57,631 nucleotides of DNA from Candidatus Curtissbacteria bacterium (GCA_024654445.1 JANLHP010000017.1:210524-268154); one strand, 5' to 3'. Shown: positions 1,581 to 18,016, numbered from the stretch's first letter. The notes: generated by a model from the sequence alone, not told the origin. A program made the numbers and translations.

Positions 1581-1874
1581 GGGCGTAAATCGGTTAATCG
1601 CTGAATCGATAAATTGCTAAATAGATTAATCGCATAATCGCTGAAATTGTCACTGTGTTGTGGCTAGAACGATTGAACAGTTAAACGATTCACCAATTTC
1701 ACAAATTTAACGATTTAACTATATATCAATGTAACGATTAAACCTTAACATATGAAACAAGGTGCGAATAGTAGAACATTTAGTCTCAAAAACCTGACAT
1801 TTTCACAAAAATTTACCTTTTCAGAAAACTCAGCCAAATCAGAAAACCGGGCCTCAATCGGAAAATCGGAGAAA

Positions 1875-2029
1875 AGGTCTCCCTGAGTTCAAAGGTGAAA
1901 TCCTTCGTGATTTAAGGTGGCATCCTTGCTTGCCCGCCTTTGGAGGGAGTTTTTGAAAGGTGCCCTACCTTAAATCTAAAAAGTACTTCCAGGTATTTAA
2001 GGTCTCACCTTAAAGAAGGGTGAGACCTT
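1875..2029. repeat. mosaic repeat block: degenerate A hairpin, short C element (1910-1975, reverse orientation), perfect A hairpin AAGGTCTCACC-n9-GGTGAGACCTT (1999-2029)
   Basis: read directly; C element ATTTAAGGTGGCATCC…GGTGCCCTACCTTAAAT. Confidence 0.8.
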
Positions 2030-2186
2030 CTTTAAGACTTTACTGACACTCTGACCATCTGACTTTCTGAGTATTCCGAGTTTTTTGGGTGTCTTTTCCT
2101 GTCCGGATTCGTGTCAGGGTTAAGTCAAGCAACTATAGGACAAGTCGGTATAATTGGCCAAAGTGAAGGAGCACTTAGAAATATAA

Positions 2187-5100
2187 ATGAGTATGGAACT
2201 TGATATAATTCAACTAATGCCTGAAGGAACCTCCCGTAGAAAAGAGGACGAGTATCCTCAAGACGAGCTGAAAAAAGACGCCCAAGCTGAAAAATCGAGG
2301 GCTGAGGCTAAAGCACGTGAGAAGGATAAAAGAGAGGCTGAGCGCAAAGGCAGGCAAAAAGAGAATGAGGCGCAGGTAAAGAACAACGAAGACGCTGCTT
2401 CTCAGGCACAAAAAACTCCCAAAAAACAAGAAGAGGAAGAAGAACGAGTAGTTGTCTTCAAAGACATGAGGGTTGCTTCAGAACTTTCAAACGCGGTTCG
2501 CAATAAGCAAGATATTGTTGCTTCAGAAGACGAACTTCAATCCTTAAGAAATATTCTGACGGTTGTTGGCAATGATTTGAAAGATGTCGAAAAGATGTCT
2601 GTCGGTCAAATGTTGGTTGCCGTTCAAGAAGTTGCGCAGGATGAGCGTATTGTTGTGGCTGACGCTGAGGAAGAGGACTGGCTGAATGAGAAGGGACAAC
2701 CCGAAAGAGTCGCAGAGGAGAAAGAAGTGCAGCAGTTGATAGAGACTGCCAGAAGTAAGGACGAAGTGAAGCTCGATGCAGAAAAAGTCGAAAAGTATGT
2801 GAAGGTCTCGACAGAAAAAGTAAGTAAACCCAGGGCTAAGGCCGCAGTACAACAAGCGGAAATTGATCCTGACAGTCGTGCGCTCAAGCTCGAGGGCGAG
2901 GGTGGGACAACGTATGTCGTTGCCACATCCAAGCGACTTTACAACTTAGAACATCGCCAAGTAGAAGCTGTTTTCAGGTCGCAGGGCGTCGATGTCAAAG
3001 TGCCGAGTGCTGAAAGATGGAATAGGGCGAGCGGTTGGGTGCGTCAAAAATGGTTACACAAACACGACATTGTTAACACTACCGAATTGCCGGAGGTGGA
3101 TGACGAGGGACGATTTATATACAAGGACAGAGGACACGGGATGACTTTTGTGGTGGCCAAGGATGGTACCAAAAAAGGACTTATTTATGGTCAACGAGGC
3201 CGAGATATAGACTTTGACGCGCTTAATGGACTGGTAGCCCGAGCCGGGATCGATGTTGATATAGAAAAACCAGAGGGTTGGGAAGATATGTCTTTTGATA
3301 GAAAGAAAGACTTGTTTAGAGAAAAGGAGATCTTCTTGCCTTTACCCGCATCCGGTGGTGCTGGTGGGGGTGTTATTTACTATGACACGCAAGACTTAGG
3401 TGTGGAGATGGTGGCGGGTCCTCCAGGTACTCCACCCAGGCGTCAGTTGAATCACCAGGAGGCAACCACGCTTTTGATGAGAAGGCTAGTTGATCTGGAT
3501 ACTGACGAGCTGACGCAACCCGCTGCGAATGTCGATAGACAAGAAGTTTTTGAAAGGCTGAGAGATGTTTCGGGGGAATATTATGACATTCTCCGTAACA
3601 CCCGAGGTATCCCTTACGAGCGTTATAAAGGTACTGTAATTGAAGTTTCGCTAATTGAGCTTAAAGCTTTAGAGTCTCTTGAGCGAAATATGGGCACTGC
3701 AGCTTTCGCTACCTCCGGTTATGAGGCTGAACGACAAGCACTTTATAGAGAGTTAGCGGACATTGGGTCTACAGAGGAAATTCTTCATAGAATAATTTAT
3801 ATAAAAACAGAGCCTGTTCCTGGGCCTCCAACGCCCGCTCAACATGACGAACTTCAAGCCCTGATTGGAGCAGTCGAATTTCAAGTCGGGACTGCTGAGA
3901 ATTTGGCAGCAGCTAAGGGTGAAGGATTCAGGTTGGTGAACAACGTGATAAAGGGTCTGGAAAAGCAGGAAGTTTTAACGCAAAAGATTCCGAACCAGAG
4001 AGATGTCCTTGATGACACAATTTCTGAGACACGAAGGAAGGATTTGAGGGCTTTGTTAAAGGAGATGGGTGGGCATTTTAAGGAAGTAGAGAGGCAGATC
4101 GGAGTGAAGGCAAAGAATTCTCTTTACATTCCCCTCAATGAAAAAATAGATGAATTGGAAAAGTTGGCAAGTATGGGAAGCACTAATAAGGACGAGATCG
4201 ATGAGCAGCTATATATTTTTGCTTTAAGTTTGCCTTCACCTCGCGGCACAGAAGGACTTTTGGAGTGGCGCGCGGCTATTTCTACAGAAGGGGTTGAAAG
4301 GAACATTTTGCGACAGGCGGAGGTGGGTGTACCTCGCGCTTGGAGTGAATCGGAGAGAAACGCTGAAAATAACTTTAGATACATAGAATCTTCGGACCTT
4401 TCCCAGGAAGAAGTGCGTGCCGCTCTCGGAAACGTTGTCGCAATTTCCGAGGCATTGTCGCGTATCAAAGGAACTGAAAGGATTGACGCTCTACGAATGA
4501 AAGAGAAGATAGACAAGCAAAAACTCGCGGTAGAAGGTAAATATTATCAAAGAAAATTGACGTGGAATGGCGACGGGAACCCGGAGAAGTTTATTCAGAT
4601 TTTTGAAGGTGACCAATGGAATGATGAAACGAGGGGTGTTTTTCAATCGAGGTTTGACAGAGATCATGAAGGGAACGAATACAAAGGGACTGATAACTTC
4701 GGCAACGAAGTAAAATTTAACATGGCTGATTTGTCCACAACGACTTGGTATAGACAACTTTATCGCGACCACGAGGATTTTAATTTGATAGAACCTTTGA
4801 CAGCTTTAAACATCTCGGCACAAATAGTACGGGGTGACGCTACGTGTAACCAAATTGAGGGGATGCTTCGGAGAAGGCTTTTGGATTCGGAGATAACGAG
4901 ATTGAACGAATTAAGGCAGATTTTTAAGAATGAGGTTACACCCGAGGTTTCCTTAATTCCGAATCGTCCTCCCGGTCCCCCTTCCGATGCTGAAATTGAC
5001 AAGTATTGGGCTGACCCGAAAAATGCCGAAGGTATTATCTCTGCTTGGCATAAGAGGACTACTCTTGTGGGTGCGCATGGCAAGGATGATAGTGTTGCCA

Positions 5101-6398
5101 ATGTTGCTCTTGCTCAGCAAAAAAAGGACGTTTGGAAAGGCAGAATACATCAGGATTTAGTAGATCGCTTAAGGAACGAATTCCACATAAGTAACGAGAC
5201 CATAGAAGAATGGGAAGAAGCAGGTTTACTGGATCAGGCTGTAAATGTGGGCTATTGGGAAGGGTACATGGATTCGGCTTTTTCGGAGTTTGGACTTGTG
5301 AGGATTTTTGACAGGAGGAAAGTGTTCTATCGTTTGGATAATGCAAAAATTATGGGAATACCGCCTGCGGGTGGAGGACCTGCTGGGTATGAAAATATGG
5401 ACAACGTTGTCCATTACCAGGTGTATTCTTCGGTCTACGGAGAAGAAAGCAATATTTATAACCAACGAAGGATAGATTTTGGTCCTGAATGGATTCTCGA
5501 TGAACTTAGGGGGAAAACAGGCAAAAACGTAGACAGGGATTTGGATACAAATACGGTATTATGGGAAAAAATGCTTGGCAAAAGAAGGGGTATGCTTCAC
5601 AACAATAGGATGTCAGTAAAGTACACAAGCGATAAATTCCGAGAATCGAAAGATTTTGCGCCAAAACTTTTAACAGCTAAAGCCAAAGAATATGGCTATA
5701 GTACTTTTGAGGATTTTAAGAAACTATTAAAGGATACGATGAATAATTTGGACAATGTAAGAACTTTGGACATCAACGATGATGAATTTGATGAATCCTG
5801 GGCAAGAGGGGCCGCTCTAGCGGAGTTATTCGAGGACGGCTTTCTCTCTTTTGAGGGAATTAATTGGAGCGAAGTCTACAATAATAACGACACAAACGTT
5901 TCCAAATTCAACATGGGTGACTGGACGGGCGATCGTAAATCGACGTGGGATTTTTATGGGACAGAAGGTTTGCAACGCTACCTGAAAACGCCGAACACTA
6001 AGATTTTCTTCGATGTTATGAGTGAAAAGTTCTTCTATTCCAAGAGGGAAAATCGGCTTAAGTCTTGGTACAAAATAGTGCTTCCTGCGCATTTCGAAAT
6101 TGGGGATCACTGGAAGGAATGGTATAGCTCGAACTACAACATGACTAGCGCCGAGAAGGAAGAGATGATCGAAGAGGCCGTTTCTATCAACCGATTGGAA
6201 AAAGAGGCTGAGAGTGCTTTTAAAGCGCAGAATTTAGGAATACTTCCGGTTCGCAGAGCATTTCAATTTTATGAAACATGGAGAATAATAGCTGAAGAGA
6301 CAATCACTAAAAGATCTTTCAATCTTTTCCTCAATTTCTTACTAGAAATGTTTAAAGGAATGTTTGGGCAATCAATGGCTCAGCTAGAGGGAAAATAA
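2187..6398 (+). CDS. 1403-aa hypothetical protein, no recognisable domain; K/E-rich N-terminus, no signal peptide or TM
   Basis: single uninterrupted ORF, AGGAG at 2167-2171, TATAAT at 2149-2154; all antisense ORFs are short. Confidence 0.85.
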   Translation: MSMELDIIQLMPEGTSRRKEDEYPQDELKKDAQAEKSRAEAKAREKDKREAERKGRQKENEAQVKNNEDAASQAQKTPKKQEEEEERVVVFKDMRVASELSNAVRNKQDIVASEDELQSLRNILTVVGNDLKDVEKMSVGQMLVAVQEVAQDERIVVADAEEEDWLNEKGQPERVAEEKEVQQLIETARSKDEVKLDAEKVEKYVKVSTEKVSKPRAKAAVQQAEIDPDSRALKLEGEGGTTYVVATSKRLYNLEHRQVEAVFRSQGVDVKVPSAERWNRASGWVRQKWLHKHDIVNTTELPEVDDEGRFIYKDRGHGMTFVVAKDGTKKGLIYGQRGRDIDFDALNGLVARAGIDVDIEKPEGWEDMSFDRKKDLFREKEIFLPLPASGGAGGGVIYYDTQDLGVEMVAGPPGTPPRRQLNHQEATTLLMRRLVDLDTDELTQPAANVDRQEVFERLRDVSGEYYDILRNTRGIPYERYKGTVIEVSLIELKALESLERNMGTAAFATSGYEAERQALYRELADIGSTEEILHRIIYIKTEPVPGPPTPAQHDELQALIGAVEFQVGTAENLAAAKGEGFRLVNNVIKGLEKQEVLTQKIPNQRDVLDDTISETRRKDLRALLKEMGGHFKEVERQIGVKAKNSLYIPLNEKIDELEKLASMGSTNKDEIDEQLYIFALSLPSPRGTEGLLEWRAAISTEGVERNILRQAEVGVPRAWSESERNAENNFRYIESSDLSQEEVRAALGNVVAISEALSRIKGTERIDALRMKEKIDKQKLAVEGKYYQRKLTWNGDGNPEKFIQIFEGDQWNDETRGVFQSRFDRDHEGNEYKGTDNFGNEVKFNMADLSTTTWYRQLYRDHEDFNLIEPLTALNISAQIVRGDATCNQIEGMLRRRLLDSEITRLNELRQIFKNEVTPEVSLIPNRPPGPPSDAEIDKYWADPKNAEGIISAWHKRTTLVGAHGKDDSVANVALAQQKKDVWKGRIHQDLVDRLRNEFHISNETIEEWEEAGLLDQAVNVGYWEGYMDSAFSEFGLVRIFDRRKVFYRLDNAKIMGIPPAGGGPAGYENMDNVVHYQVYSSVYGEESNIYNQRRIDFGPEWILDELRGKTGKNVDRDLDTNTVLWEKMLGKRRGMLHNNRMSVKYTSDKFRESKDFAPKLLTAKAKEYGYSTFEDFKKLLKDTMNNLDNVRTLDINDDEFDESWARGAALAELFEDGFLSFEGINWSEVYNNNDTNVSKFNMGDWTGDRKSTWDFYGTEGLQRYLKTPNTKIFFDVMSEKFFYSKRENRLKSWYKIVLPAHFEIGDHWKEWYSSNYNMTSAEKEEMIEEAVSINRLEKEAESAFKAQNLGILPVRRAFQFYETWRIIAEETITKRSFNLFLNFLLEMFKGMFGQSMAQLEGK

Positions 6399-6458
6399 CG
6401 TCTTCGGCGACCAAATTAATGTTCTAATCCTAAAACTGAAGCCTTTACGTTCTCTCCA

Positions 6459-7940
6459 TTATTCTTCGCGCGGTCCGGGTCTTGTGTGCATTTCCTTTCC
6501 ATACATACCCCTGCTATAAATTCTCTCAAATGCAGCTTCTCTGGTCGCGTGGGCTCGTGCTTCACCGACTGGTTTATACGCTTCTCTAAATGGTCTGGCC
6601 GCAAGACTACCCGCAGCTCCAACAGCTGCTACGCCGCCCCCGATATTCAATCCGCCTTTGACTCCAAACCTATCTTTTACAAGTTGCGCCGCGCTCGGGG
6701 TCATCAGCAAGAATCCCAAGCCGATTAAACTCCCTATATTATTGAGGCCAAGGTTACCAGAAAGAAGGGGAAATTGTCCAATGTCGCCCGGTTTAAACGC
6801 GGGTTGGTCGTTTATGCCTCCTAGGTTACCAACGCCGGAAAGTATGCCCGCGAAAATGAACATTATCGCGACAACTGGAAAAACGGCTATATTGGCGCCT
6901 AGCTGCCTGAACCATTCTCTGGCGCCGTTATTACCAGGCATTGCCTGGACCAATAGTAGAAAAGGTCCGAAAACTGTAAGGATGATAATGGTTACGTAAG
7001 CCATCAAAAGCATGAAGAAAACCCGGAACATGATGAAAAGCATCGCTATTGCTAAAATTATGCCGGCTATTGACCCTCCAAACATGCCGACCACCTTGGA
7101 CAAAAATCCATCTCCAAATAATTGACTAATAAGGTTTTGGATAGCCGTAAAAACTTGATCGAATATTCCCGTAAGTGAGCCCATGACTACGCTAAACACG
7201 TTCGATTTAACTACGTTTTGAGCATTTTCGTTAACAAGGCCCGCTTGTTCAAGAGTAGTTATTACAACGTTTAGAAAAACGAACATTAGGTCTATCATGA
7301 GGCCAACTATCGCGTAACTGAAGGTGACAAGAATTAAGGCGATAACGATTCTCGGTATGGAATCTTGAACTGTAGCGACTGCCTGCGGGGAAATGTGTGT
7401 GCGGAACATGACCATAAAGCCAATGATGACAAAAACTATCACGAAGCCCATGTAGGAAATATTGCGAAAGACGGTCCATAAATTCTGGACTGGTGTTAAG
7501 GCTTGGTAGCCGATTCCCTGGGCGTAGGCCGGCTGAATCGGGTTAAACCTTTCTATTTGTTGCGCGAAGTATTGAGTGCCGGAAGCGGGGGGAGTCGTGA
7601 TTATGCCTGCGACCATTCTGCCTGTTACGTTGAGCGCTCCGGTGGTTTTTGTAACGTCGTTTGTTTCTGAGTGGAGCTGAGAATGACCTGTCAAAAGCGT
7701 GAGCAAGCTGTCGGCAGTTCCCGCGATTTGGTTTAAGTTGAATATTTTATCGTCGTAAACTTGTTTAGTTACAGCCGTTGTGTTGAGTTCTCTGATGCTT
7801 TCAGCTGCGTCGAGAGGTGTTTGAGCGTAGACTGGCGACAGAGTTAAGAGAATAGAGAGTAGAGCTAAAAGCGCAAAAATTACTAAAGCGATTGACAATT
7901 TACGATTAACAATTAACGATAAAACGGCAGTTATTTTCAT
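6459..7940 (-). CDS. polytopic membrane protein, VirB6/TrbL-like
   Basis: signal-like N-terminus (…LTLSPVYAQ), then at least 6 hydrophobic helices and a Gly-rich tail; context within T4SS-like locus. Confidence 0.5.
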   Translation of the reverse strand: MKITAVLSLIVNRKLSIALVIFALLALLSILLTLSPVYAQTPLDAAESIRELNTTAVTKQVYDDKIFNLNQIAGTADSLLTLLTGHSQLHSETNDVTKTTGALNVTGRMVAGIITTPPASGTQYFAQQIERFNPIQPAYAQGIGYQALTPVQNLWTVFRNISYMGFVIVFVIIGFMVMFRTHISPQAVATVQDSIPRIVIALILVTFSYAIVGLMIDLMFVFLNVVITTLEQAGLVNENAQNVVKSNVFSVVMGSLTGIFDQVFTAIQNLISQLFGDGFLSKVVGMFGGSIAGIILAIAMLFIMFRVFFMLLMAYVTIIILTVFGPFLLLVQAMPGNNGAREWFRQLGANIAVFPVVAIMFIFAGILSGVGNLGGINDQPAFKPGDIGQFPLLSGNLGLNNIGSLIGLGFLLMTPSAAQLVKDRFGVKGGLNIGGGVAAVGAAGSLAARPFREAYKPVGEARAHATREAAFERIYSRGMYGKEMHTRPGPREE

Positions 7941-8006
7941 GCGGGCTGTAGCCGACTTGTGTGGCTTAATTCCATATTAGGAGTAAAGGGTAGGGTAGGT
8001 CAAATG

Positions 8007-9125
8007 TTAAGAGGCTTTCTGTTGGTCTGCCAGTTGGTCCTTAAGGGTTGCTGGTACTTCTGTGGTGCTTACCGCCGCGGCTCGCGGCAATCCTCTTATA
8101 AATTCTTCAACCATTGCAAGGAGAAGAGATCTTCTCCCTGGGTCGTTCTCCTTAATGGCTTGGAGCATTTTATCGGCCATTTTTACAAGATTTTCTTGGG
8201 TTTCCTTTAAGGCTTTGTTTGATTCTCGCAACTGACCTCTAAGCTCTGCCATTTGTTCCATTAGATCCCCGATTGCTTCTTCCTGGCGCTCGGGTGTGTT
8301 GGCTATTCGATTGAGCGCGTCTTTTATTTTGGGGTCTGAATCTGCCAGTTTCTGGGCTTCTTCGGGGTGATCTCTCACGAACTTATAAGCAGCTACATCG
8401 AGTTCATTTTGTATTATTTGCTCCCTTTCCTCAAGCGTTATACCCCTTGGGTCTGGATTTTCCGGGTCTTTTTCCTTTGCTTTCGTTTCTTTTGCTCTAA
8501 TTTCTGCGTCTCTTGCTGTTACTCTTGCTTCTGCTGCTTCTCGGACGTTTTCGTAGTCCGGAGTGCCTACATCTGAGACTTCGATTGGCTCGGACACAGC
8601 CTGTTTTTGAGCGTCGATTTTATCAAGTGCTGATTTTACAAGGGGATCTCTTCCGGCTAATGCTCTAGCTTGATCTGGGTGCTGCGTGGCATACGCGAAA
8701 GCGGCGATTTCAAGATTGTTTTGGCGGATTTGTGCTTTTAATTCGGGGGCGATATTTTCTCCTGCTGTTTCTCTTGCAGTGATGCTATCGTTTGTCGTTC
8801 TCTCGGCCTGGTCGACCATCGCTTGATAAGCAGGATCTTGTATTTGTTGTTCTGGAGCAGGAGGGGGAGGTGTGGGTGGTTCTGCGTGTGGAGGTAAGAC
8901 TTGAGGCGGATCTCCCTCACTCGGTACATGGGCAATTGTGCCTTGGGCTAATTCTTGTACGACTTGCTCTGTGCCGGCTCCACTGGCGGCTTGTTCAAGA
9001 GCGGCAGCCGCGTCAGGTCCTGTTGCTTCCGGCCCTGTTCTCGGAGGAACAGGTTCTGGGGGCGGAACGGGTCTGGGAGCTTCAACTGGTGTTACTGGAG
9101 GTACTTCTGTAAAATCTCCTGGCAT
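8007..9125 (-). CDS. hypothetical protein, Pro-rich N-terminus, internal ~60-aa duplication, C-terminal coiled coil
   Basis: ORF; duplicated motif NLEIAAFAYATQHPDQARALAGRDPLVKSALDKI / NELDVAAYKFVRDHPEEAQKLADSDPKIKDALNRI; start overlaps upstream stop (ATGA-type junction at 9125). Confidence 0.7.
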   Translation of the reverse strand: MPGDFTEVPPVTPVEAPRPVPPPEPVPPRTGPEATGPDAAAALEQAASGAGTEQVVQELAQGTIAHVPSEGDPPQVLPPHAEPPTPPPPAPEQQIQDPAYQAMVDQAERTTNDSITARETAGENIAPELKAQIRQNNLEIAAFAYATQHPDQARALAGRDPLVKSALDKIDAQKQAVSEPIEVSDVGTPDYENVREAAEARVTARDAEIRAKETKAKEKDPENPDPRGITLEEREQIIQNELDVAAYKFVRDHPEEAQKLADSDPKIKDALNRIANTPERQEEAIGDLMEQMAELRGQLRESNKALKETQENLVKMADKMLQAIKENDPGRRSLLLAMVEEFIRGLPRAAAVSTTEVPATLKDQLADQQKAS

Positions 9126-9454: not shown

Positions 9455-9476
9455 AACTAAATCATATCAAACGTAG

Positions 9477-10844
9477 TTATTCGGCGCATGTCGCTTCGAG
9501 GCCACACCTTGGACATTCTGTTGTGCCAGATCCATAAATGATTATGGTGCCGCAGCGAGGGCAGGGGAAATCGCTGTCGTCTTCGCCAGCATCATTTGTA
9601 GAAGGGGCAAAGTCGGCGGCGGATTGAGCACTGATTGCTTTTGCGAGTCTCGATATGGCAGGGGTGAGACTGAAGCCTTTTTGTTTCCCCGGGCAACCTC
9701 GTCTGCTTGTTTTTGGCATGCGTCTGCCCTTAATTTGGATTTGTTCTTCGATGTCTTCATCGTTTGTGCGAACGAGGTTTCTTGAGGTCCACAAAATTTT
9801 TGCTTTTTCTTGCTTGAACTTTGTAAAAGCATCCTGTTTTACTTTTTTTACTTTTTGTTTGATCTTCTCAACTTCTTCGTCGAAAGTGTTGAGGGTAGTA
9901 TTCCAGATCATTTTGAGTCGCTCTATTGCTAGGGGGGTATCGGCGAGCGTTCGGATGTAGGCTAAAAAATAGGGAATGCAGGGTTCCAATGCCTCTTGAA
10001 GTAGCTCTGTATTTTTTGCCCGATTGTCGAGGGCGAAGTTTTCCAGAATTTGGGGAAGATTAAATTTAGTTTCGGCAGGTCGGGAGAGCATATAGGCAGC
10101 GTTTAAAGTTTGCTCTTGATTTGGTCTTTGGTAGCCTGGGTCTACTTGGCAAAGCGCATCTAAAAACCCGGCATTGGAGTGGTTGGAGTGGTATTTGTTC
10201 GCGGTGATGGTTTCACCATTCTGTTCTATAACGTAAAAAATGTTGTCATGGTAAAGGATGTCGTCGTCCTCGCCTTTTGGTTCCTCTTCTTCGCCGTGTT
10301 TGCAACGTTCCGATCTTGGAGAGGCGACAACTAAGGTGACATCTCTCCTCTCTGCTAGAAGCCTTATTATTTCTTCGAAACCATCAATTTCTGCTAACTC
10401 TCTTTCGACTTCGTTGCTGCCGTTTTCTTCCAGAAATTGTTGACCCTTTTTATATCTTTCGATAACGGGTAGGGGATAATCGTCGCTCCAGAGTTGACTC
10501 TCGTCGTCCAGGTAGTAATGAAAAGTGCTTCTTTCGACCGCCAGACGCTCGCCTAGAGTCTTTTCTAAGTTGTGATAGGTTCTGTCGTTTGTTTGATCAA
10601 GAAGGCTTTCATACTCGGTCTGGGGAATTTTCCCGCGCAGAGGTTGGAGGTCGAGATAATCCTGGATGTCGTGGCGAGGGTTGTAAGCTAGAATTCCTTC
10701 AAAATCTTCGGGTATATTCCAGCGGACCGACTCGCGGGTAACAAGGTGAGACCTTGTCATACAGTGCCATGCGGTCCTCGTCCTTCGGACTGCGGGCCTA
10801 AAGGTCTCTCCTTGTTGATTTAGGTTGCTTGGAATTCGTTCCAT
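9477..10844 (-). CDS. hypothetical 455-aa protein with acidic patch and C-terminal CPxCG…CPxCG zinc ribbon
   Basis: ORF; AGGAGG 8 nt upstream of ATG 10844; C-terminus FPCPRCGTIIIYGSGTTECPRCG. Confidence 0.75.
   Translation of the reverse strand: MERIPSNLNQQGETFRPAVRRTRTAWHCMTRSHLVTRESVRWNIPEDFEGILAYNPRHDIQDYLDLQPLRGKIPQTEYESLLDQTNDRTYHNLEKTLGERLAVERSTFHYYLDDESQLWSDDYPLPVIERYKKGQQFLEENGSNEVERELAEIDGFEEIIRLLAERRDVTLVVASPRSERCKHGEEEEPKGEDDDILYHDNIFYVIEQNGETITANKYHSNHSNAGFLDALCQVDPGYQRPNQEQTLNAAYMLSRPAETKFNLPQILENFALDNRAKNTELLQEALEPCIPYFLAYIRTLADTPLAIERLKMIWNTTLNTFDEEVEKIKQKVKKVKQDAFTKFKQEKAKILWTSRNLVRTNDEDIEEQIQIKGRRMPKTSRRGCPGKQKGFSLTPAISRLAKAISAQSAADFAPSTNDAGEDDSDFPCPRCGTIIIYGSGTTECPRCGLEATCAE
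10743..10813. repeat. A-type stem (AAGGTGAGACCTT / AAGGTCTCTCCTT) whose loop holds a B module; lies inside the first 34 codons of CDS 9477-10844
   Basis: AAGGTGAGACCTT-GTCATACAGTGCCAT-GCGGTCCTC GTCC ttcg GGAC TGCGGGCCTA-AAGGTCTCTCCTT. Confidence 0.75.
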
Positions 10845-11208
10845 TAAAAAACCTCCTATTTAGTCTCGAGGAGGTTTACAAGTCGCTTTAGACCCGCAAT
10901 GCTAATGAGGATCGCAAGCTTCGCTTTTTGGGCGAGTTATCCTGCTCGGGACTATCCTGCGCTAAAGCTTCGGATAGCAAGCTTTTTTAGCTAAGGATTC
11001 CAATCCATTGCGGTATTAGGACTTATACATTGCTTACTAAAGCTTTGTAATTACCTTTGCGGCACAGTTCCGGAGTCAAACCGGATTCCCCGCTTGCCCG
11101 CCTAAATTGAGTCTTTGACTCTATTTGGCGAGGCGATGGAATTTAGATTGTAAATCTAGATTAGCACTGGGGGTGTGAGGAATCAATAGCCCTCGTTTAC
11201 TAAAGCAG

Positions 11209-11441
11209 AAGGTCTCATCCCTGACAGGGTGAGACCTTAAATACTCGGGAGTAACTTTTAGATTTAAGGAATTTTTTAAAATTCCTTGCGGTCCTCGACT
11301 AAAGTCTGCGGGCCTAAAGGTAGGGCACCTCTTCGAGTCTGAGCAATGAGGCTTACCTCAGAGTCGATGACTTTTGAAGACTCCCTCCGTCGCTCTATTA
11401 GAGCAGAGCTCTGGCGAGCAGGCAAGGATGCCACCTTTAAT
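11209..11441. repeat. mosaic block: A hairpin (11209-11238), AAGGAATTTTTTAAAATTCCTT palindrome (11266-11287), B module (11288-11317), full-length C element (~11315-11441)
   Basis: read directly. Confidence 0.8.
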
Positions 11442-11445
11442 CATT

Positions 11446-11937
11446 TCAGCAGCCGTCCGGAAGGATGTTGAAGTTGGGGTTTTGCTGCTTTAGTTCAAAA
11501 TTTAGAATAAACCTAACCGGAAGAGTGCAGAGGTCTTGCTGTTTGAGTTCAAAATCCAAAAACCACTTTTGCGCGAGAACTCTGGATTCAATTGGATTTT
11601 GGTTGACCATTACGAAGAATATATCCGGAGTAGGTACGTAAACAATCCTGAAATCTTGAGATTCAAATAATACGATGTCGCCGTTTTGATTTGATAATTC
11701 CGAAGCTATAATTTTGTCCCTTATCGGTTTTATATCTTTGTTTTCCTGAACAGTTTTTTCTTTAGGAGGGATTATTACTTCTGGAGATAGAGCTGAAGGA
11801 TTTGGTGATTCTAATGGAGTAGGTGACTTCTTGTCGCGTGCCGAAAAGACGCTTAAGAGTATTAAGCCAATTAGGACAAAAATAACCGCAATCGTGAACA
11901 GTGGTGATCTTTGTCTAATCGCGTTTAAATTTAACAT
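11446..11937 (-). CDS. hypothetical single-pass membrane protein (163 aa)
   Basis: N-terminal TM LFTIAVIFVLIGLILLSVF; start overlaps stop of upstream gene (11931-11937). Confidence 0.65.
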   Translation of the reverse strand: MLNLNAIRQRSPLFTIAVIFVLIGLILLSVFSARDKKSPTPLESPNPSALSPEVIIPPKEKTVQENKDIKPIRDKIIASELSNQNGDIVLFESQDFRIVYVPTPDIFFVMVNQNPIESRVLAQKWFLDFELKQQDLCTLPVRFILNFELKQQNPNFNILPDGC

Positions 11938-14048
11938 CCTTTTGCGATACCGCTTTTCCTTGCTACTTGCCAGTAGCAGAAAGGCGTAATGGATTTGTTA
12001 TAGTTGATGGCATTTGTTATTTGAACTCGCCAAGGAACATCACCGTGATCAAATGTTCCATTTTTGCCCCTTCCCATTTGAAACAATCCCCAGGCTCCAG
12101 CTGTGTCTGGTGTGTCGTCTGCCCCTGCTTGTTGATGGGGGCGGTAAGCATTTGGTCCGTAACTGCTTTCTCCCGCGATGATTGTTAGCCAAGTAGAAAA
12201 ATTCGCCGGATCCTCGGCTTGGACCATTTGGGACATTAATTCGAAGCTGAAATCACAAGCCGGATCGCCGAAGTTACCGAGAGGATTATTGAGCGCGTAC
12301 TTGCCCCCGCAATTGTCAGCGGTAACGGGATGGCTTCCCGGGGCACTTTGCCCGAAATCACTGCAGCCCGCGCTTCTTAGTGTTGGATCTTGCTGGTCAA
12401 CAGGAGTCAGGGAAATATTAACTGTTTGCTTGCTGCAGTTTACTGTGCCCACGCCCCTTGTTTTTGGGTCGTCATTTGCCGAAGCACCTTGTGTTTGACC
12501 CGGTTGCTTAAGACCAGGAAGATATTTTCCACCGATTAAGCTATTAGGTATGAAGTAAGAATAAACACCTGGATTTTTTTTATCCGAGTAGCTCAAGTTG
12601 TTCCAAGCTTCAGCTGTCCAGGGTAAGTTAAAAATGGGCCAAATCCTGACAGTAATGTCGCAGTCGTACCGGTCAGAGGTTCCCTGTATGAGGGTACAGT
12701 CTGGTCCTGGCACGGGGTATCGGTTGAGTATGGGCATCTCGTTGCCCCCTTCAGTTGATAATCCGGGCCACCGAAGTGTAAAAGTGCAAACGACATTGTC
12801 ATTGCCTTCTTCAAGTTTGTTGTTATCTACTATATTTTTATAGGGATTGTCACACCTTACATTCATGCCATCGATTTGGTTTATGCGATCAATTTCACCG
12901 GGAGGGAATGGGCAATAGGGTGCCTGACCCGCTTTGGGGTCCTTGCTGGTAATGATACAAGTGGAATTTTCAGGCACTACTTCGGCAAATGCGGGCCTGA
13001 TGAGATCTAGCCTTTCCATTGTTATCTGTATTATTTTGCCGAGGTTTTTAGCTAATCCTTCAGATGTTTTGGTGAGCAGATTTTTACAGAGGTCGATGGT
13101 TGCCGCGAAGATATTGCCGGAGTCTATAGAGCTGGTTTGAACCTCTTTGCATCGTGGATCATTCGGATCTAATTCTGGGTTCAAGATTCTGTGGCACTTG
13201 TCTCTTTGGGTGTCCAAAGGAACAATCAGGCGGTTGAGCTGGTCGGAAATATGGGCGGTACGGAAATGTTCTGGGAGGGTGATGTTTATTTTATAAGACT
13301 GAAAAAGGCACTGACCCTGTTCTAAGCGCTTGATATCTTTTTGTCCGACTGCTGATTTAAAGTTGATAAAACCTTTATGGAATTCGCTATAGGAGGTTGG
13401 GATTTTTTCCCAATATCTGCCCCAAGTGTTAGGGTCTTGAGTTTCTCCTACAGGTTTTGGGTGGCCGAAATCCGTTACCATCTGAAAAATAGTCCTGGGG
13501 TCGCCTCCTTTAATGTCTGAAATTTGAGTTTCGGCTTCTGGTAAATTGTGGCCGGCTTCGGAAGAGACGTAATTAATGTATTTAATTTTTAAATCGTCGA
13601 TCAAAATTTTATCTGAGAGTTTTTGTGCAGGGCCGTGGTAGTTATTCAAATCTTCACCATTGAAGCTGGTTATATCAGAAAGTTGATGCGCAGGATCCTG
13701 GAATTTTCCTCCCCCAAAGTCGGAGTTTTCGGGAGCAAAGACTGCTTGAAGTTTTGAAAAGTCGACTAGGAATGGGAAGTCTTTGGATTCAAGGGGAATG
13801 TATTTCTCGTTGCTTACAGGTATAGTTTGTGCCTGAACATTGCGTAGAGAGTAATTTAATATTATTGGGGCTTCGCCGTCTTCGGCAATTATCGGATTTT
13901 CTGATAAATCTTTTGCGTCTTTTGGAAACGCACATGGTTGAGGGTCGGGAGCAACGGGCGTTTGGGCGGATGCCGAAGAGGGTATAGAGAATAGAGTTAA
14001 GAGGAAGATAAAGATAATTAACTTTAAAATCTTTGGCAGCGCAGGCAT
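11931..14048 (-). CDS. secreted 705-aa protein with C-terminal lytic-transglycosylase (SLT/VirB1-like) domain
   Basis: signal peptide …SSASAQ; C-terminus IIAGESSYGPNAY…AWGLFQMGRG…AINYN has the E-S / GLxQ / Y pattern of SLT domains. Confidence 0.6.
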   Translation of the reverse strand: MPALPKILKLIIFIFLLTLFSIPSSASAQTPVAPDPQPCAFPKDAKDLSENPIIAEDGEAPIILNYSLRNVQAQTIPVSNEKYIPLESKDFPFLVDFSKLQAVFAPENSDFGGGKFQDPAHQLSDITSFNGEDLNNYHGPAQKLSDKILIDDLKIKYINYVSSEAGHNLPEAETQISDIKGGDPRTIFQMVTDFGHPKPVGETQDPNTWGRYWEKIPTSYSEFHKGFINFKSAVGQKDIKRLEQGQCLFQSYKINITLPEHFRTAHISDQLNRLIVPLDTQRDKCHRILNPELDPNDPRCKEVQTSSIDSGNIFAATIDLCKNLLTKTSEGLAKNLGKIIQITMERLDLIRPAFAEVVPENSTCIITSKDPKAGQAPYCPFPPGEIDRINQIDGMNVRCDNPYKNIVDNNKLEEGNDNVVCTFTLRWPGLSTEGGNEMPILNRYPVPGPDCTLIQGTSDRYDCDITVRIWPIFNLPWTAEAWNNLSYSDKKNPGVYSYFIPNSLIGGKYLPGLKQPGQTQGASANDDPKTRGVGTVNCSKQTVNISLTPVDQQDPTLRSAGCSDFGQSAPGSHPVTADNCGGKYALNNPLGNFGDPACDFSFELMSQMVQAEDPANFSTWLTIIAGESSYGPNAYRPHQQAGADDTPDTAGAWGLFQMGRGKNGTFDHGDVPWRVQITNAINYNKSITPFCYWQVARKSGIAKGC

Positions 14049-14101
14049 AAGTTCAGTATATCAATAATTGTTGATTGTTGTGTTGCTAACGATGTGTGGA
14101 G

Positions 14102-14133
14102 AAGGTCTCACCTTGATTCAAGGATGAGACCTT
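14102..14133. repeat. A hairpin AAGGTCTCACCTT-gattc-AAGGATGAGACCTT
   Basis: between pilin 14170 stop and transglycosylase start. Confidence 0.8.
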
Positions 14134-14169
14134 AAATCTAATAATTTTAACGATGTATCGATTTAACAA

Positions 14170-14448
14170 TTACTCTGGAATTCTGACAGTAGTGACGTCT
14201 ACGCCTGTGACCCTTCCAATAAGCTGGAGAATTAGCCAGGACGCGACAACTAAAACAATACCGATTACGGCATAGGTGAGTATGCTTTGCGCCTGGCCGA
14301 CGTTTTTAGGATCGCCGCCCGAGGTGATGTATTTAAAACCGCCGACAATAAGCATGACGAAAAACGCGATCCCTGCCGCCGGAGCGAGCAAAGATATTAT
14401 GCGTTGCAAGACGTCTAGGATATCCGTAATCTGGGCTGGGCCGTCCAT
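14170..14448 (-). CDS. T4SS pilin-like (VirB2/TrbC-type two-TM hairpin) protein, 92 aa
   Basis: FFVMLIVGGFKYITSGGDPKNVGQAQSILTYAVIGIVLVVASWLILQLI module shared by six neighbours. Confidence 0.7.
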   Translation of the reverse strand: MDGPAQITDILDVLQRIISLLAPAAGIAFFVMLIVGGFKYITSGGDPKNVGQAQSILTYAVIGIVLVVASWLILQLIGRVTGVDVTTVRIPE

Positions 14449-14483
14449 ATAAACCTGTAGTTATCGTCTGCCTTGCTAACTTT

Positions 14484-14900
14484 TTAGCACTCTAACTGTT
14501 TTACAGTTGGAATACAGACTCCTCCGCTTAATATCGGGATTCCGAAGAAGGTCTCTACAAGCCTGATCAACGCAAAAGCAATCAAGACAACAACTAAACC
14601 GATTAAAGCAGCTGTTATAGTGCTTCTTGCGTTTGCGACAGCTTTTTCATCTCCACCTGCAAGTATCCAGCGAATACCGCCAACCAAAAGCATGATGAAT
14701 GCGATAACAAAGGCAACAACGATTATGAATTGAATAACTGCTTGGACAATTCCGATTATGTTGTTGACGCCGGGGTCATCAAGGGGAGGTGGTACTATTG
14801 GGCCTTCTCTATCAAGTGGAGCAGGTTGAGCAATTAGTACGGGAGCATAAAAATTAGCGTTTTTGTGTACTAAGTCGATTATTTTTTTAACTTTTAACAT
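14484..14900 (-). CDS. T4SS pilin-like protein, 138 aa
   Basis: FIMLLVGGIRWILAGGDEKAVANARSTITAALIGLVVVLIAFALIRLV; GGAGGTGA SD upstream of ATG. Confidence 0.7.
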   Translation of the reverse strand: MLKVKKIIDLVHKNANFYAPVLIAQPAPLDREGPIVPPPLDDPGVNNIIGIVQAVIQFIIVVAFVIAFIMLLVGGIRWILAGGDEKAVANARSTITAALIGLVVVLIAFALIRLVETFFGIPILSGGVCIPTVKQLEC

Positions 14901-14917
14901 ATATTTATCTCACCTCC

Positions 14918-15427
14918 TCATGGACTTGATCTTGTCGGTAGCTGAAATCCTCCTGAAATAATTTCTATACCAAAGAAGGTTTCTACCAATTTGATTATAG
15001 CAAAAGCACCCAGCACAATTACCAGTCCCAGAAGACCCCAATATATTCTGCTCCAGGCGGTTGAAATGTTTTTGGGGTCACCGTTCGCGAAGATAAAGCT
15101 ATAGCCCGCGAATATCATCCAAATCACGGCGATTACGAAGGCGACGATTATAAGAAGCCAGATGCCGTTTCTGATGAAACCCGCGATGAAATCGGAAACG
15201 CTTTGGTTGCCAATATCTACCACTCCTGAGGGGGCTTCTATCGTTCCGATTCCGGGTTGGACATTCCCTGGCGCTTGATCAATAGGGCCGCGGGGAGCAT
15301 CCTGATCACCGACGCCGTCTTGCGGAGGCGGGAAGGACGGGTCACCTTCTCCTTGAGCGAAAACCGTGGTCGATGAGAAAAGGAAGAGCAGGAGAGGTAA
15401 GGTAAGTGTGATTAAAAGCTTTTTCAT
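14918..15427 (-). CDS. T4SS pilin-like protein with signal peptide and Pro/Gly-rich ectodomain, 169 aa
   Basis: signal …TTVFAQ; VIWMIFAGYSFIFANGDPKNISTAWSRIYWGLLGLVIVLGAFAIIKLV. Confidence 0.7.
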   Translation of the reverse strand: MKKLLITLTLPLLLFLFSSTTVFAQGEGDPSFPPPQDGVGDQDAPRGPIDQAPGNVQPGIGTIEAPSGVVDIGNQSVSDFIAGFIRNGIWLLIIVAFVIAVIWMIFAGYSFIFANGDPKNISTAWSRIYWGLLGLVIVLGAFAIIKLVETFFGIEIISGGFQLPTRSSP

Positions 15428-15438
15428 TTGCGTTTGTT

Positions 15439-15522
15439 CAAGGATCTCACCTCTTCGAGTCTGAGCGATGAGGGCTTGTCCCTCAGAGTCGAAGACTTTC
15501 GAAGACTCAAGGAGAGACCTTG
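15439..15522. repeat. hybrid element: A-type arms (AAGGATCTCACC … GGAGAGACCTT) enclosing the internal core of element C
   Basis: core TCTTCGAGTCTGAGCGATGAGGGCTTGTCCCTCAGAGTCGAAGACTTTCGAAGACTC ~90% identical to cores at 11330-11385 and 17926-17980. Confidence 0.8.
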
Positions 15523-15528
15523 AAGCTT

Positions 15529-15837
15529 CTAAAACTGAATGTTTGTACCCAAGAAATACTGTACAGCTTTTAGGATAACAAATGCCAGAGCGGTTACAAC
15601 AAGGCCGACAACGGCATAAGTTATCATCGCGCCTGCCGCCGACAACTTTTTGGGGTCTCCACCGGATGTTACGAGTCTGATTCCGCCAATAATTATGAAT
15701 ACAACAGCGATTACACCAGCTATACTTGTTAGGATAAGAATGAGGTCGCTTGCCAGGCTGCCTATGTCGGAAAAGAGTCCGGCTGGCTGAAAAATGTCAC
15801 TGTTAATTCTAAATTCTGCAGCGTATGTGTCAAACAT
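15529..15837 (-). CDS. T4SS pilin-like protein, 102 aa
   Basis: VVFIIIGGIRLVTSGGDPKKLSAAGAMITYAVVGLVVTALAFVILKAV. Confidence 0.7.
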   Translation of the reverse strand: MFDTYAAEFRINSDIFQPAGLFSDIGSLASDLILILTSIAGVIAVVFIIIGGIRLVTSGGDPKKLSAAGAMITYAVVGLVVTALAFVILKAVQYFLGTNIQF

Positions 15838-15879
15838 GGACTAATTGTTAATTTCTAATTTTTAATTTTAAAAAATCTG

Positions 15880-15969
15880 ATTTAAGGTGGCATCCTTGAG
15901 TCCTCGAGAGGTGCCCTACCTTAAATCTTAAAAGTTCAAGGATGAGACCTTAACAAGGATCTCACCTTG
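15880..15969. repeat. minimal C element (TIRs only, 15880-15926) plus A-type hairpin (15937-15969)
   Basis: ATTTAAGGTGGCATCC-ttgagtcctcgaga-GGTGCCCTACCTTAAAT. Confidence 0.8.
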
Positions 15970-15991
15970 AACACCAGATTCTCCGAGTTTT

Positions 15992-16624
15992 CTACGTTAT
16001 CGTCGTTCCCAAGAACAATCTGTTAACTACTTGTAATATAGCAAAAGCCAAAAGAATAATGACAAAGCCAATTATGGCGTACATTAGCCTTCCTCGTGCC
16101 TTGCCAACGGCTTCTGGGTTGCCCCCGGACGTGATGAATTGAATACCAGAAAATATTATGAATAGGACTGTAATCATGCCAGCGATGGGGAGGACAACTT
16201 TGAGCGCTGCTTCAACTAAAGTTGGAACCAAATCCTGCTCTTTTTTAAATTTCAAATCGTCGACAGCGATATCTTTTAGGCAGTCACTGAAGCCTTTACA
16301 TGGTTGGGACGAGGTGCCCGAACCGGGTTGTTGTGTGTTCCTGCCACCCGGGTCTGGTTGAGTATTCCCGTCGTCCTGATCTGGTGGGGAGGCGGTTTTT
16401 AGAAAACACGCGGGATGTCCGTACGAATCTATCTCTTCTTCAGTAGCCGAGTTGCAGCCCTCCGGTGGTCTGTCTCGTCCGCATCGGGGGCCGCCCGTAG
16501 TTACATTATGTACATATGGATCTGAGCAATGATTGGCAGAGACAGGGTTCGAGAGGACGGAAAGTGGAGCCAAAATAAGAAAGATAAAAATTAAAATAGT
16601 GAGAGAAAGTTTTTGCCAGATCAT
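15992..16624 (-). CDS. T4SS pilin-like protein with Cys-containing ectodomain, 210 aa
   Basis: signal/TM N-terminus; VLFIIFSGIQFITSGGNPEAVGKARGRLMYAIIGFVIILLAFAILQVV. Confidence 0.7.
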   Translation of the reverse strand: MIWQKLSLTILIFIFLILAPLSVLSNPVSANHCSDPYVHNVTTGGPRCGRDRPPEGCNSATEEEIDSYGHPACFLKTASPPDQDDGNTQPDPGGRNTQQPGSGTSSQPCKGFSDCLKDIAVDDLKFKKEQDLVPTLVEAALKVVLPIAGMITVLFIIFSGIQFITSGGNPEAVGKARGRLMYAIIGFVIILLAFAILQVVNRLFLGTTIT

Positions 16625-16625
16625 T

Positions 16626-17768
16626 TTAAAAACCCAAAGTAGGGCCCAAGATACTCGAACCGATAAATCGTAGAATTAGCACGCTGAGTATTAAAAAGAT
16701 CAAGCCCGCAATAGCAGCGACAAACATGTCTTTTCCCGCCGTTAACTTTTGTTGGTCTCCAGATGAGGTGATTACTCTTATCGCGCCAATTGACATGAGT
16801 ATCAAAGCGATTCCGCCCGCTACGCCCAATGAGATTGTTAAGAATCTCTTAATAAAACCGGCGGGGTCGGTGGGAATGTCACCTACTGCCGTATCGCAGA
16901 CATTGTTTTGGCAAGGATTTTGGCCGGAGATTAGGTTTGATGCGTCTTCTTTATTTGGATCGTTGGTAGGCGGAAGAACTTGCCCACCCGCAGGGTCTAT
17001 CTTTACTACGAACCTTTTATACGTAAATCCCCCGGAACATTCGCGGGTGTCCCCAGATATCGAATGCTCGTCAACTTTCTCGTTAATGTCGATTACGTAT
17101 GTCCCAGCTTCTACAGGGGGGAAAGAAACTCTTGTAGAGCCTGTTTCTGGGATCGTGAAGCATCTTTCCTGTTTAAATCCGCCTCCGGTTTGAGTTTTCA
17201 TAACAGCTTGGTAATTATTGCGGTCGTCGGGGCCTGGTCTTCTGCCACTTGCATCGACGAACGTTTGGTCCGAGGGCGTGAAGGTTCCCGAAGAAGTAAC
17301 CGTTACGTTTATCGATAGGTATTCGTGTTTTACCTTAAAGGCTGCTGTTTGAACCTCGCTATTACTGCCTTCGGGGTAAAGCCTAATCCTATAAGTATGT
17401 CCGCCGTGAAAATAGTCGTCGGGGCCACAGTCCTGGTTTATTTTAACGGCATCCTGGCCGTCTCCGCATACTCTTACAGATATCTTATTCTCTGCGTCAG
17501 ACCTTACATCTTTTCTAGCCCAAGCGTCATTGACGATTATCCGGTTGTGAGTTATAGACTCGCAGTGATGTGGGTCAGACAATACACAAAGGTCATAATC
17601 TTTATTCGGCTGTAATCCCGAAAAGACAATGTCTACGAAAGGAACTGTTTCGTTAAGTTCTGTAAAGGTGGGAGGAAATATGATTTCTTGAGCGTGGGCG
17701 GAATTGACTTGGGCTACAAGCGAGGTTGCGAGGACGGCTAGTCCGACAAAAAGTTTCTTGAAATTCAT
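16626..17768 (-). CDS. T4SS pilin-like module fused to ~300-aa Cys-rich secreted ectodomain, 380 aa
   Basis: signal …NSAHAQE; C-terminus LILMSIGAIRVITSSGDQQKLTAGKDMFVAAIAGLIFLILSVLILRFI. Confidence 0.7.
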   Translation of the reverse strand: MNFKKLFVGLAVLATSLVAQVNSAHAQEIIFPPTFTELNETVPFVDIVFSGLQPNKDYDLCVLSDPHHCESITHNRIIVNDAWARKDVRSDAENKISVRVCGDGQDAVKINQDCGPDDYFHGGHTYRIRLYPEGSNSEVQTAAFKVKHEYLSINVTVTSSGTFTPSDQTFVDASGRRPGPDDRNNYQAVMKTQTGGGFKQERCFTIPETGSTRVSFPPVEAGTYVIDINEKVDEHSISGDTRECSGGFTYKRFVVKIDPAGGQVLPPTNDPNKEDASNLISGQNPCQNNVCDTAVGDIPTDPAGFIKRFLTISLGVAGGIALILMSIGAIRVITSSGDQQKLTAGKDMFVAAIAGLIFLILSVLILRFIGSSILGPTLGF

Positions 17769-17861
17769 CTCAATTTCAGTTTAGCACTAGGAAAGTGTAG
17801 GTAGCAAAAGAAATGATAATTGTTACATTGTTAAATTGGTGATTGATAAATTGTTAGGGAA

Positions 17862-18016
17862 AAGGTCTCATCCTTCTTTAAGGTGAGACCTTAAATACCA
17901 AGAGTTAGATTTAAGGTAGGGCACCTCTTCGAGTCTGAGCAATGAGGCTTACCTCAGAGTCGATGACTCTCGACGACTCCCTCCAAGGGCGGGCAAGCAA
18001 GGATGCCACCTTAAAT
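17862..18016. repeat. A hairpin (17862-17892) plus full-length C element (17909-18016)
   Basis: ATTTAAGGTAGGGCACC…GGATGCCACCTTAAAT, 108 nt. Confidence 0.8.

Follow-up and report, generated by a model that had tools for sequence, protein, structure and literature searches.

What are the small palindromic modules that crowd the spacers of a type IV secretion system-like (T4SS-like) pilus locus, and do they serve this locus or have they accumulated in it? The question is raised by a stretch of chromosomal DNA, 57.6 kb in length and here called the window, from a Curtissbacteria-like member of the Patescibacteria, also known as the Candidate Phyla Radiation (CPR). The nearest named relatives of the DnaG encoded in the window belong to Candidatus Curtissbacteria (57-63% identity, with other matches up to 66%), and the T4SS-like locus, which is of the CPR type, occupies bases 1-18,079. 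A reading of the window made from the sequence alone (the sequence-only reading) had described two kinds of module in the spacers, a hairpin, A, and a longer element with terminal inverted repeats, C; a third module, B, is described below. [quoted passage not shown] Such repeats have been investigated thoroughly in Proteobacteria, Neisseria, pneumococci and Rickettsia, and our search of the literature found no comparable palindromic repeats described for the CPR/Patescibacteria.

Modules A and C Are Nested Palindromes in the Spacers of the Pilus Locus

A single A arm, AAGGTCTCACC, is in itself a 5-3-5 inverted repeat, AAGGT-CTC-ACCTT. With at most one mismatch the arm occurs 12 times in the whole window, compared with 0.89 expected, and none of 100 shuffled sequences reached 12. 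All 12 matches fall within 1999-17892, and a search of the window with the 13-mer arm, allowing up to two mismatches, returned only further copies in the locus. Module A consists of two arms of 11-16 nt, the paired arms being AAGGTCTCA and TGAGACCTT, and these build seven hairpins, starting at 1999, 10743, 11209, 14102, 15439, 15937 and 17862, as the sequence-only reading had proposed, plus a decayed one (Table 1). Four of the seven are canonical and one has its arm order inverted. The length series claimed for C was likewise recovered, with forms of 127, 108, 66 and 47 nt and a C core (15448-15508) flanked by A-like arms. The two full-length copies, C2 and C4, are 96% identical over 72 nt and share one orientation, while C1 and C3 have the other. 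The C ends, GATTTAAGGT(AG)GGCACC and GGATGCCACCTTAAATC, form terminal inverted repeats of ~15 bp with bulges, which in C2 are slightly degenerate (TAAAGG…CCTTTAAT). Every module is bracketed by AAGG…CCTT and usually ends in ATTTAAGG, a terminus common to A, C and the small palindrome at 11262-11286; 11 of its 12 matches in the window are module ends, compared with 4.2 expected. In addition, the modules nest: A arms enclose B or the C core, and the C core is also enclosed by C terminal repeats. As a mosaic of small palindromes nested in one another, with a deletion series, the modules resemble BIME/REP, Correia or BOX repeats, and the comparison with a BIME/REP-like mosaic made on the first reading is upheld.

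For A, the predicted folding energies run from -17 to -22 kcal/mol; C and the composites span -20 to -46 kcal/mol, and the short C forms fold far better than shuffled sequence. The energies show no preference for the transcribed strand over the other strand. The inner A stems covary, as a check suggested on the first reading had looked for, whereas the outer stem never varies and is therefore uninformative on structure. No Rfam family matched a sequence overlapping the A, B or C modules at E values up to 1.

Neither A nor C was found in the remaining part of the window (18.1-57.6 kb). The six occupied spacers all lie in the locus, for which a post hoc estimate gives P ~1.5e-4 if placement were uniform over intergenic DNA, and the modules make up ~750 of the 2,415 intergenic bases of the locus. 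The proposed restriction to the locus thus stands for A and C within the 57.6-kb window, the frame in which it was judged; it does not hold for B, which also lies beside tRNA-Ser genes, or for A beyond the window, where this module is multi-copy in other Patescibacteria. Similarly, the claim that every copy lies between genes applies to all copies except the composite at 10743-10813.

The modules are also dense in GGTCTC (BsaI-type), GAAGAC and GAGTC, and a BsaI-type enzyme would cut just where the invariant part of A ends. Because the sites are not depleted outside the modules (GGTCTC, 10 outside and 23 in total, compared with ~17 expected; GAAGAC, 37 compared with 41), we dropped the idea that restriction sites are involved and regard the match as coincidence.

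A and C Are Absent from Syntenic Loci

Two syntenic relatives were recovered, L127 (GCA_041643115.1) and L141. The Zn-ribbon protein of the locus and DnaG worked better as synteny anchors than a 705-aa locus protein, whose best homologue (P0003, L126) sits in a non-T4SS context. Gene order is the same in L127 (SpoIID, pilins, Zn-ribbon ORF, VirB6-like, PrgI, TraC, VirB4-like), whose genes are ~67-75% identical to those of the window in DNA. Its locus contains no A and no C, and its spacers after the pilin genes measure 2-48 nt and are without GC-rich hairpins. In L141, where no A, B or C was found, the spacer between the first pilin-like gene and SpoIID is 135 nt, compared with 311 nt in the window, which there holds A and C4, and the tRNA-Ser genes lie 10 nt apart, compared with 252 nt of B-containing repeats in the window. 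Since A and C are absent from both relatives, the modules are additions specific to the lineage and do not belong to what is conserved in the operon.

Three sediment metagenome runs (X1-X3) that hold relatives at 85-99% identity were also compared. In a contig from X1, position 1808 is joined to 2111 and 29 unrelated letters replace 1809-2110, such that the whole block of decayed A, C1 and A is missing. Presence/absence polymorphism between related genomes is therefore seen in L127, in L141 and in the X1 contig, and this gain and loss fits the MITE-like mobility that had been suggested from the sequence. The summed contig depth in the sediment metagenomes is 20-53 at module termini, compared with 4-6 at unique flanks; several contigs run from modules into differing flanks, and one contig from X3 carries an A arm together with a B end and a C terminal repeat, in changed order. 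These data fit multi-copy, reshuffled repeats, although several diverged strains with the same locus may contribute. A metagenome scan with the C terminus ATTTAAGGTAGGGCACCT gave five matches, all of them chance matches with no C-like continuation. Scans of IMG/VR with the A hairpin and the C terminus returned only unrelated sequences and thus gave no link to phages.

Module A Belongs to a Palindrome Family Found across Patescibacteria

The pattern AAGGTCTCAYC-N2-20-GRTGAGACCTT matched at least 120 stretches when one genome per species was searched. The family palindrome, TTTAAGGTCTCA…TGAGACCTTYT, is polar and multi-copy in many Patescibacteria metagenome-assembled genomes (MAGs), and its flanks, TTTAAGG…CCTTTTC, match the polarity seen in the window. 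At least 10 blocks are spread along one 971-kb Patescibacteria contig, and among the matches listed Gottesmanbacteria, Saccharibacteria and other Patescibacteria have 2-5 stretches each. In one Berkelbacteria contig, A stands side by side with the variant arm AAGGATCTCACC and the 3' piece of the C core. Where only a single match is found, as in Bacillus, Chryseobacterium and others, it appears to reflect chance or an orthologous terminator. None of the listed A loci outside the window encodes a homologue of the window T4SS proteins. Because the modules are missing from the orthologous loci and A occurs in unrelated contexts, operators specific to this locus, one of the roles first suggested, are not supported.

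Among the matches listed, ~25 copies lie inside ORFs of 200-1500 aa, where they are nearly always read as xRSHLAxQGETL/F. The host genes include those for UvrA, LepA, ATP synthase beta (AtpD), acyl-CoA synthetase, Xaa-Pro peptidase, MurD, RecJ and RseP. A TGA in the second arm closes one of the three reading frames, yet between the frames that stay open the bias is still strong, ~23 to 4. Within genes, the A family tolerates, or is retained in, a single open reading frame. For UvrA and for acyl-CoA synthetase, the element lies at the same codon in three species each, with flanks ~75-85% identical; no difference is seen between the outer arms, while the inner stems differ by compensatory changes (CTTGC/GCAAG vs. 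CCTGC/GCAGG), though arm conservation is biased upward here because these loci were picked for perfect arms. In AtpD, the element fills a variable loop of nearly equal length. No consistent flanking duplication was seen at the in-frame A copies.

As an observation in its own right, the in-frame palindrome takes the form AAGGTCTCACCTTGC-NNN-GCAAGGTGAGACCTT, 33-39 nt long, in housekeeping genes of many Patescibacteria MAGs (among others at L005, L017, L028, L039, L052, L057, L064, L066, L078, L082, L084, L092, L095, L099, L101 and L119). It is placed at orthologous codons in UvrA, acyl-CoA synthetase and Xaa-Pro peptidase, and some proteins contain degenerate second copies, for example RRHPAWQGDAF in the RecJ of L082.

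A different placement is found in the 971-kb contig, JBMOLB010000005.1, where 8 of the 10 copies among the matches listed lie 6-20 nt upstream of start codons (L006, L012, L022, L027, L038, L040, L075 and L115). The palindrome is perfect here, AAGGTCTCACCTT(T)AAGGTGAGACCTT, 27-28 nt long, and the genes that follow include ndk, atpD, miaA, miaB, rplK and a folA-like gene. Mimicry of a Shine-Dalgarno (SD) sequence was considered for this MAG and rejected, as the AAGGTGA arm lies 12-19 nt from the start codons, which is too far.

Tentatively, and aware that the idea may well fail, we propose that A stands for a class of polar mini-palindromes that extends across Patescibacteria and has not been described before, with the form 5'-(C)TGAAAAGGTCTCACC[inner stem-loop]GGTGAGACCTTAAAA-3' and a length of 27-39 nt. 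Members would reside in spacers, near start codons and, in the single frame xRSHLAxQGETL/F, in surface loops of essential proteins (for example UvrA, LepA, AtpD, MurD, RecJ and acyl-CoA synthetase), at orthologous codons, with an invariant 9-bp outer stem and compensatory inner-stem variants that are specific to each genome. If this is true, the class would reflect either concerted evolution driven by conserved machinery that acts in trans or a sequence-specific nucleic-acid signal that some conserved Patescibacteria factor reads, and the C and B modules of the window would be cargo or relatives that use the same AAGG/CCTT-bracketed ends.

Module B Lies at a Riboswitch-Controlled Gene and at tRNA-Ser Genes

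Module B has the form TGCGGTCCTC-variable hairpin-TGCGGGCCTAA and is found in the locus within or beside A and C, at 10771-10801 and 11287-11317, as well as outside it (Table 1). The composite of two A arms around B at 10743-10813 encloses or overlaps the start of the Zn-ribbon ORF (9477-10760 or 9477-10844, depending on the start), and its 3' arm, 10743-10755, is translated as TRSHL under either start. Homologues of the Zn-ribbon protein begin at MAER, aligned with the internal Met (10760) directly after B, and the database gene call of 427 aa starts at the same Met. The 455-aa ORF 9477-10844 is thus a false extension by 28 codons, made by the stop-free composite. The gene call P0025 of a relative is likewise extended, via its own B module. 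The modules therefore matter for annotation, as they produce false N-terminal ORF extensions.

Upstream of this ORF, within the T4SS-like operon, lies a cobalamin riboswitch on the minus strand (10992-11153; RF00174, 29.5 bits, E 1.4e-5), with a score just below the gathering score of 31.5. The riboswitch of L127 (9830-9921) matches AdoCbl-II at 38.9 bits, above the gathering score, and weaker matches are present in two more relatives (L129, 3471-3553; L131, 134-290). A hairpin at ~10842-10876 (AAACCTCCT…AGGAGGTTTTT) follows the riboswitch and is terminator-like or SD-sequestering. The riboswitch-controlled product is a conserved protein of 420-480 aa with a C-terminal zinc ribbon and no assigned function; this CPR pilus locus thus appears, from its sequence, to include a B12-regulated gene of unassigned function.

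The tRNA-Ser genes tga and gga (25560-26010 and 28900-29230) each carry the same repeat blocks at their flanks. Upstream of both lies a 5' tRNA-Ser-like piece (GGAGGAGTCGCATA…) with a B module; downstream of both are hairpins that end in …ATCCC(A/T)CCTCCTCCGC(C/A), and these ends resemble the T-arm and acceptor 3' end of a tRNA, broken up by insertions. The left half of B is near-complementary to the 5' end of tRNA-Ser. The tRNA-Ser genes of L141 are plain and tightly packed.

A Proposed Course of Module Spread

Collectively, the lack of U-tracts, the occurrence of C in both orientations, the lack of a strand preference in folding, and the failure to find an Rfam match, a transposase or REP-associated tyrosine transposase (RAYT), or a target-site duplication lead us to read the modules as non-autonomous palindromic repeats. 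Under this reading a recent multiplication of the repeats in the Curtissbacteria-like lineage would have enlarged the spacers in the T4SS-like pilin locus and, in the case of B, those in the tRNA-Ser cluster. The repeats may have spread via a trans-acting enzyme encoded outside the window, or by hairpin-templated copying together with gene conversion. The shorter C forms arise by loss of internal parts. Copies within the operon would be co-transcribed on the minus strand and fold into stem-loops of -17 to -45 kcal/mol that lack U-tracts. Such stem-loops could block 3' exonucleases or serve as RNase III sites and so alter the relative stability of pilin mRNA segments; we would regard any such effect on mRNA as a side effect of the hairpins rather than the reason for their presence.

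Several observations weigh against this interpretation. Among the proteins of the 57.6-kb window, no transposase, RAYT or integrase was found. The target-site duplications that, on the first reading, were to be sought beside C could not be seen beside the C ends: in none of C1 (cgt…taa), C3 (tct…tta) and C4 (tta…gct) do the two flanks share a direct repeat. No autonomous partner element was found, the collected outside loci not having been searched for widely spaced A arms or transposase genes. A and C may indeed be restricted to this locus in the source genome, selection for hairpins between the pilin cistrons could explain why they cluster in a single operon, and the excess depth in the metagenomes could partly stem from the same locus in several diverged strains. 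Furthermore, the outer 9-bp A stem is invariant across distant lineages, and in a relative whose protein is 42% identical, B has kept its place, with the riboswitch terminator on one side and the start codon on the other. These last two findings point to some sequence-specific constraint beyond pure selfishness.

Alternative Roles for the Modules

The best surviving alternative, which we nonetheless regard as unlikely, is that the hairpins are selected cis-acting RNA elements that stabilize the upstream pilin mRNA or guide RNase III/E and thereby set the ratio of pilin to assembly-gene transcripts. Five of the seven A-type hairpins do lie between co-directional genes of the minus-strand operon, several of them right after pilin genes; the hairpin at 14102-14133, for example, lies 37 nt past the stop of a 92-aa pilin gene and 54 nt ahead of the next gene. 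High stability is predicted for the stems, the four canonical A copies all point the same way with respect to the gene downstream, and REP and Correia repeats are known to act in this way (cf. PMC10969869). However, the orthologous operons of L127 and L141 manage with spacers of 2-48 nt and no equivalent GC-rich hairpins, and two of the module clusters in the window lie in divergent promoter spacers and not after cistrons. Moreover, C is present in both orientations, the transcribed strand has no folding advantage, and the same A palindrome lies in ORFs and directly upstream of start codons in other genomes.

A role as operators or architectural protein-binding sites for a regulator of the locus, with the arm AAGGT-CTC-ACCTT as a 5-3-5 site, is improbable. 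The invariance of the outer 9-13 nt of A next to variable inner stems, the copies in both divergent promoter spacers and the start-codon-proximal copies of one Patescibacteria MAG (8 of 10, 6-20 nt ahead) would suit it, but orthologous loci lack the modules, copies also lie between cistrons and within coding regions of unrelated genes, and no gene for a DNA-binding regulator was recognized in the locus.

That the hairpins are rho-independent terminators or attenuators between cistrons, a role the sequence-only reading had also raised, was rejected as very improbable despite the GC-rich stems placed after genes: no A or C hairpin is followed by a U-tract, the tails being AAAT, CTCC and TTCC. 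Of the 23 terminator-like sites in 1-19000, not one is formed by an A or C hairpin, the sole overlap being a small stem (10794-10807) inside the composite of A arms and B, and the one clear terminator-like hairpin of the region is part of the riboswitch. Finally, Neisseria uptake sequences are often found as inverted pairs, as the A arms are, and the short conserved motif is common to lineages that rely on scavenging DNA or nucleotides, which may be related; a DNA uptake sequence (DUS/USS) is nevertheless scarcely credible, as these occur about once per kb and mostly singly, whereas the 12 arms in 57.6 kb are clustered, all paired and missing from 39 kb, the 971-kb contig has ~10 blocks, and in ORFs whole palindromes span 9-13 codons and are not single motifs risen by point mutation.

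Comparison with Known Repeat Families

REP sequences and BIMEs, found in enterobacteria and pseudomonads, are known to stabilize upstream mRNA. Like the modules of the window, they are short imperfect palindromes, located mostly in operon spacers, that combine a few module types in either orientation into mosaics and show no target-site duplication, and their size of 20-40 nt fits. However, they have a GT(A/G)G head, in contrast to the termini ATTTAAGG and AAGG…CCTT and the conserved head (A)TTTAAGG found here, and they alternate with fixed linkers whereas the window modules nest. They are also strictly extragenic, while arm 10743-10755 is translated and ~25 listed copies lie in ORFs elsewhere, and no RAYT/Y1 transposase domain was found among the window proteins. 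The BOX elements of Streptococcus pneumoniae are intergenic, form stable RNA structures and combine boxA, boxB and boxC in variable combinations and copy numbers. Their arrangement is linear (A-Bn-C) and not nested, and the sequences are unrelated. As in MITEs, C has terminal inverted repeats but, unlike MITEs, no target-site duplication.

The Correia elements of Neisseria (CREE/NEMIS) resemble C in their length of ~100-150 nt, their terminal inverted repeats, their internally deleted short variants and their location beside or between genes. Their terminal repeats form a long stem when transcribed, which is an RNase III substrate (PMC10969869). However, Correia elements have terminal repeats of 26 bp, a TA duplication, promoters and integration host factor (IHF) sites, none of which was seen here, whereas C has asymmetric bulges in its terminal repeats, and there is no sequence similarity. 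RPEs are palindromic repeats that occupy both spacers and, in frame, unrelated housekeeping genes, to which they add a conserved peptide (PMC10969869). In-frame occupancy and a reduced-genome host make A similar to the RPEs, but RPEs are ~100-150 bp and restricted to Rickettsia, while A spans 27-39 nt (9-13 codons) and extends across Patescibacteria. Because size and host differ, we consider A an analogue and not a member. In AtpD, moreover, A fills a variable loop of near-equal length, unlike the clean insertion of an RPE.

Other Features of the Locus and the Window

The minus-strand operon encodes six PF18895 T4SS_pilin proteins and, as a secreted product, the 705-aa protein, which has a lytic-transglycosylase-like end. 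The name T4SS-like is justified because in the syntenic relative the locus goes on into TraC-like and VirB4/TraG-type ATPase genes. Beyond the locus, the window contains housekeeping genes, among them those for transfer-messenger RNA (tmRNA), SmpB, four tRNA-Ser, DnaG and RpoD.

Table 1. Positions of the modules and of genes of the pilus locus in the window (MFE, minimum free energy)
Feature	Position	Strand	Remarks
Decayed A-type hairpin (AAGGTCTCCC…GGTGAAATCCTT)	1875-1906		Divergent spacer between PrgI-like gene and 1403-aa ORF; MFE -7 to -10 kcal/mol
C1, 66-nt internally deleted C	1910-1975	-	Reverse relative to C2 and C4; -25 to -27 kcal/mol, z -3.6 to -4.3
Canonical A hairpin	1999-2029	+	ATTT before, CTTT after
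Composite A arm-B-A arm	10743-10813	-	B at 10771-10801; outer stem 16 bp; -35 to -39 kcal/mol
Canonical A hairpin	11209-11238	-	ATTTAAGG on minus (operon sense) strand
Small palindrome ATTTAAGGAATTTT/AAAATTCCTT	11262-11286		ATTTAAGG terminus
B module	11287-11317	+	100% identical to 29010-29040
C2, full-length C, 127 nt	11315-11441	+	Extra internal hairpin
Canonical A hairpin	14102-14133	-	No U-tract after stem
A-variant arms AAGGATCTCACC/GGAGAGACCTT around C core	15439-15521		-38.5 to -39 kcal/mol
C3, 47-nt C, essentially terminal repeats only	15880-15926	-	Reverse orientation; z -4.4 to -6.3
A hairpin, arm order inverted (GATGAGACCTT…AAGGATCTCACC)	15937-15975		-20 to -22 kcal/mol
Canonical A hairpin	17862-17892	-	Divergent spacer between first pilin-like gene and SpoIID
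C4, full-length C, 108 nt	17909-18016	+	-41 to -43 kcal/mol
B copy outside locus	25787-25825	-	Upstream of tRNA-Ser(tga)
B copy outside locus	28907-28943	+	7-bp variable inner hairpin
B copy outside locus	29010-29040	+	Upstream of tRNA-Ser(gga)
PrgI-family gene	237-1580	-	
1403-aa ORF			Across divergent spacer from PrgI-like gene; T4SS-like locus
Pilus-locus operon	6459-17768	-	Encodes VirB6-like membrane protein

Precomputed Pfam matches place an intein, with a LAGLIDADG endonuclease domain, in the VirB4/TraG-type ATPase of a relative's T4SS-like locus (L129, 11487-15077; L130, 11476-15066). Short motifs (AATTGTTA, CGATTTA and TAATTTCTAATT) make up AT-rich arrays at 1604-1739, 127-244 and 17826-17858 of the window and at 5799-5883 of L127, and the arrays form long imperfect inverted repeats in promoter-side spacers of the T4SS-like locus. 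As they are also present in the syntenic relative, these arrays may, unlike A and C, be conserved regulatory DNA. A separate repeat family outside the locus, built on GTCATCCTGAGCG(G/A)AGCGAAGGA, has copies that are 86-97% identical (24677-24770, 27353-27446 and 36125-36157; also 23879-23908 and 45772-45801), and its 27-nt core is 96% identical in the distant relative L129 (5290-5322). Two identical 44-nt stretches (48220-48263 and 52323-52366) stop where an ORF starts or extend into it by a few codons; the two ORFs differ (48249-49037 and 52369-52977, the second of them encoding a SET-domain protein), and the stretches may represent a common promoter or leader.

Implications

The repeats account for the unusually long spacers of the pilin operon, and the window is an example of an ultra-small, streamlined genome that carries a burst of nested repeats. 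The most interesting lead is the phylum-wide in-frame palindrome family that includes A. This family would provide a testable handle on how repeats spread without visible transposases and on the evolution of protein loops in reduced genomes, and it may bear on a conserved nucleic-acid recognition system in Patescibacteria.

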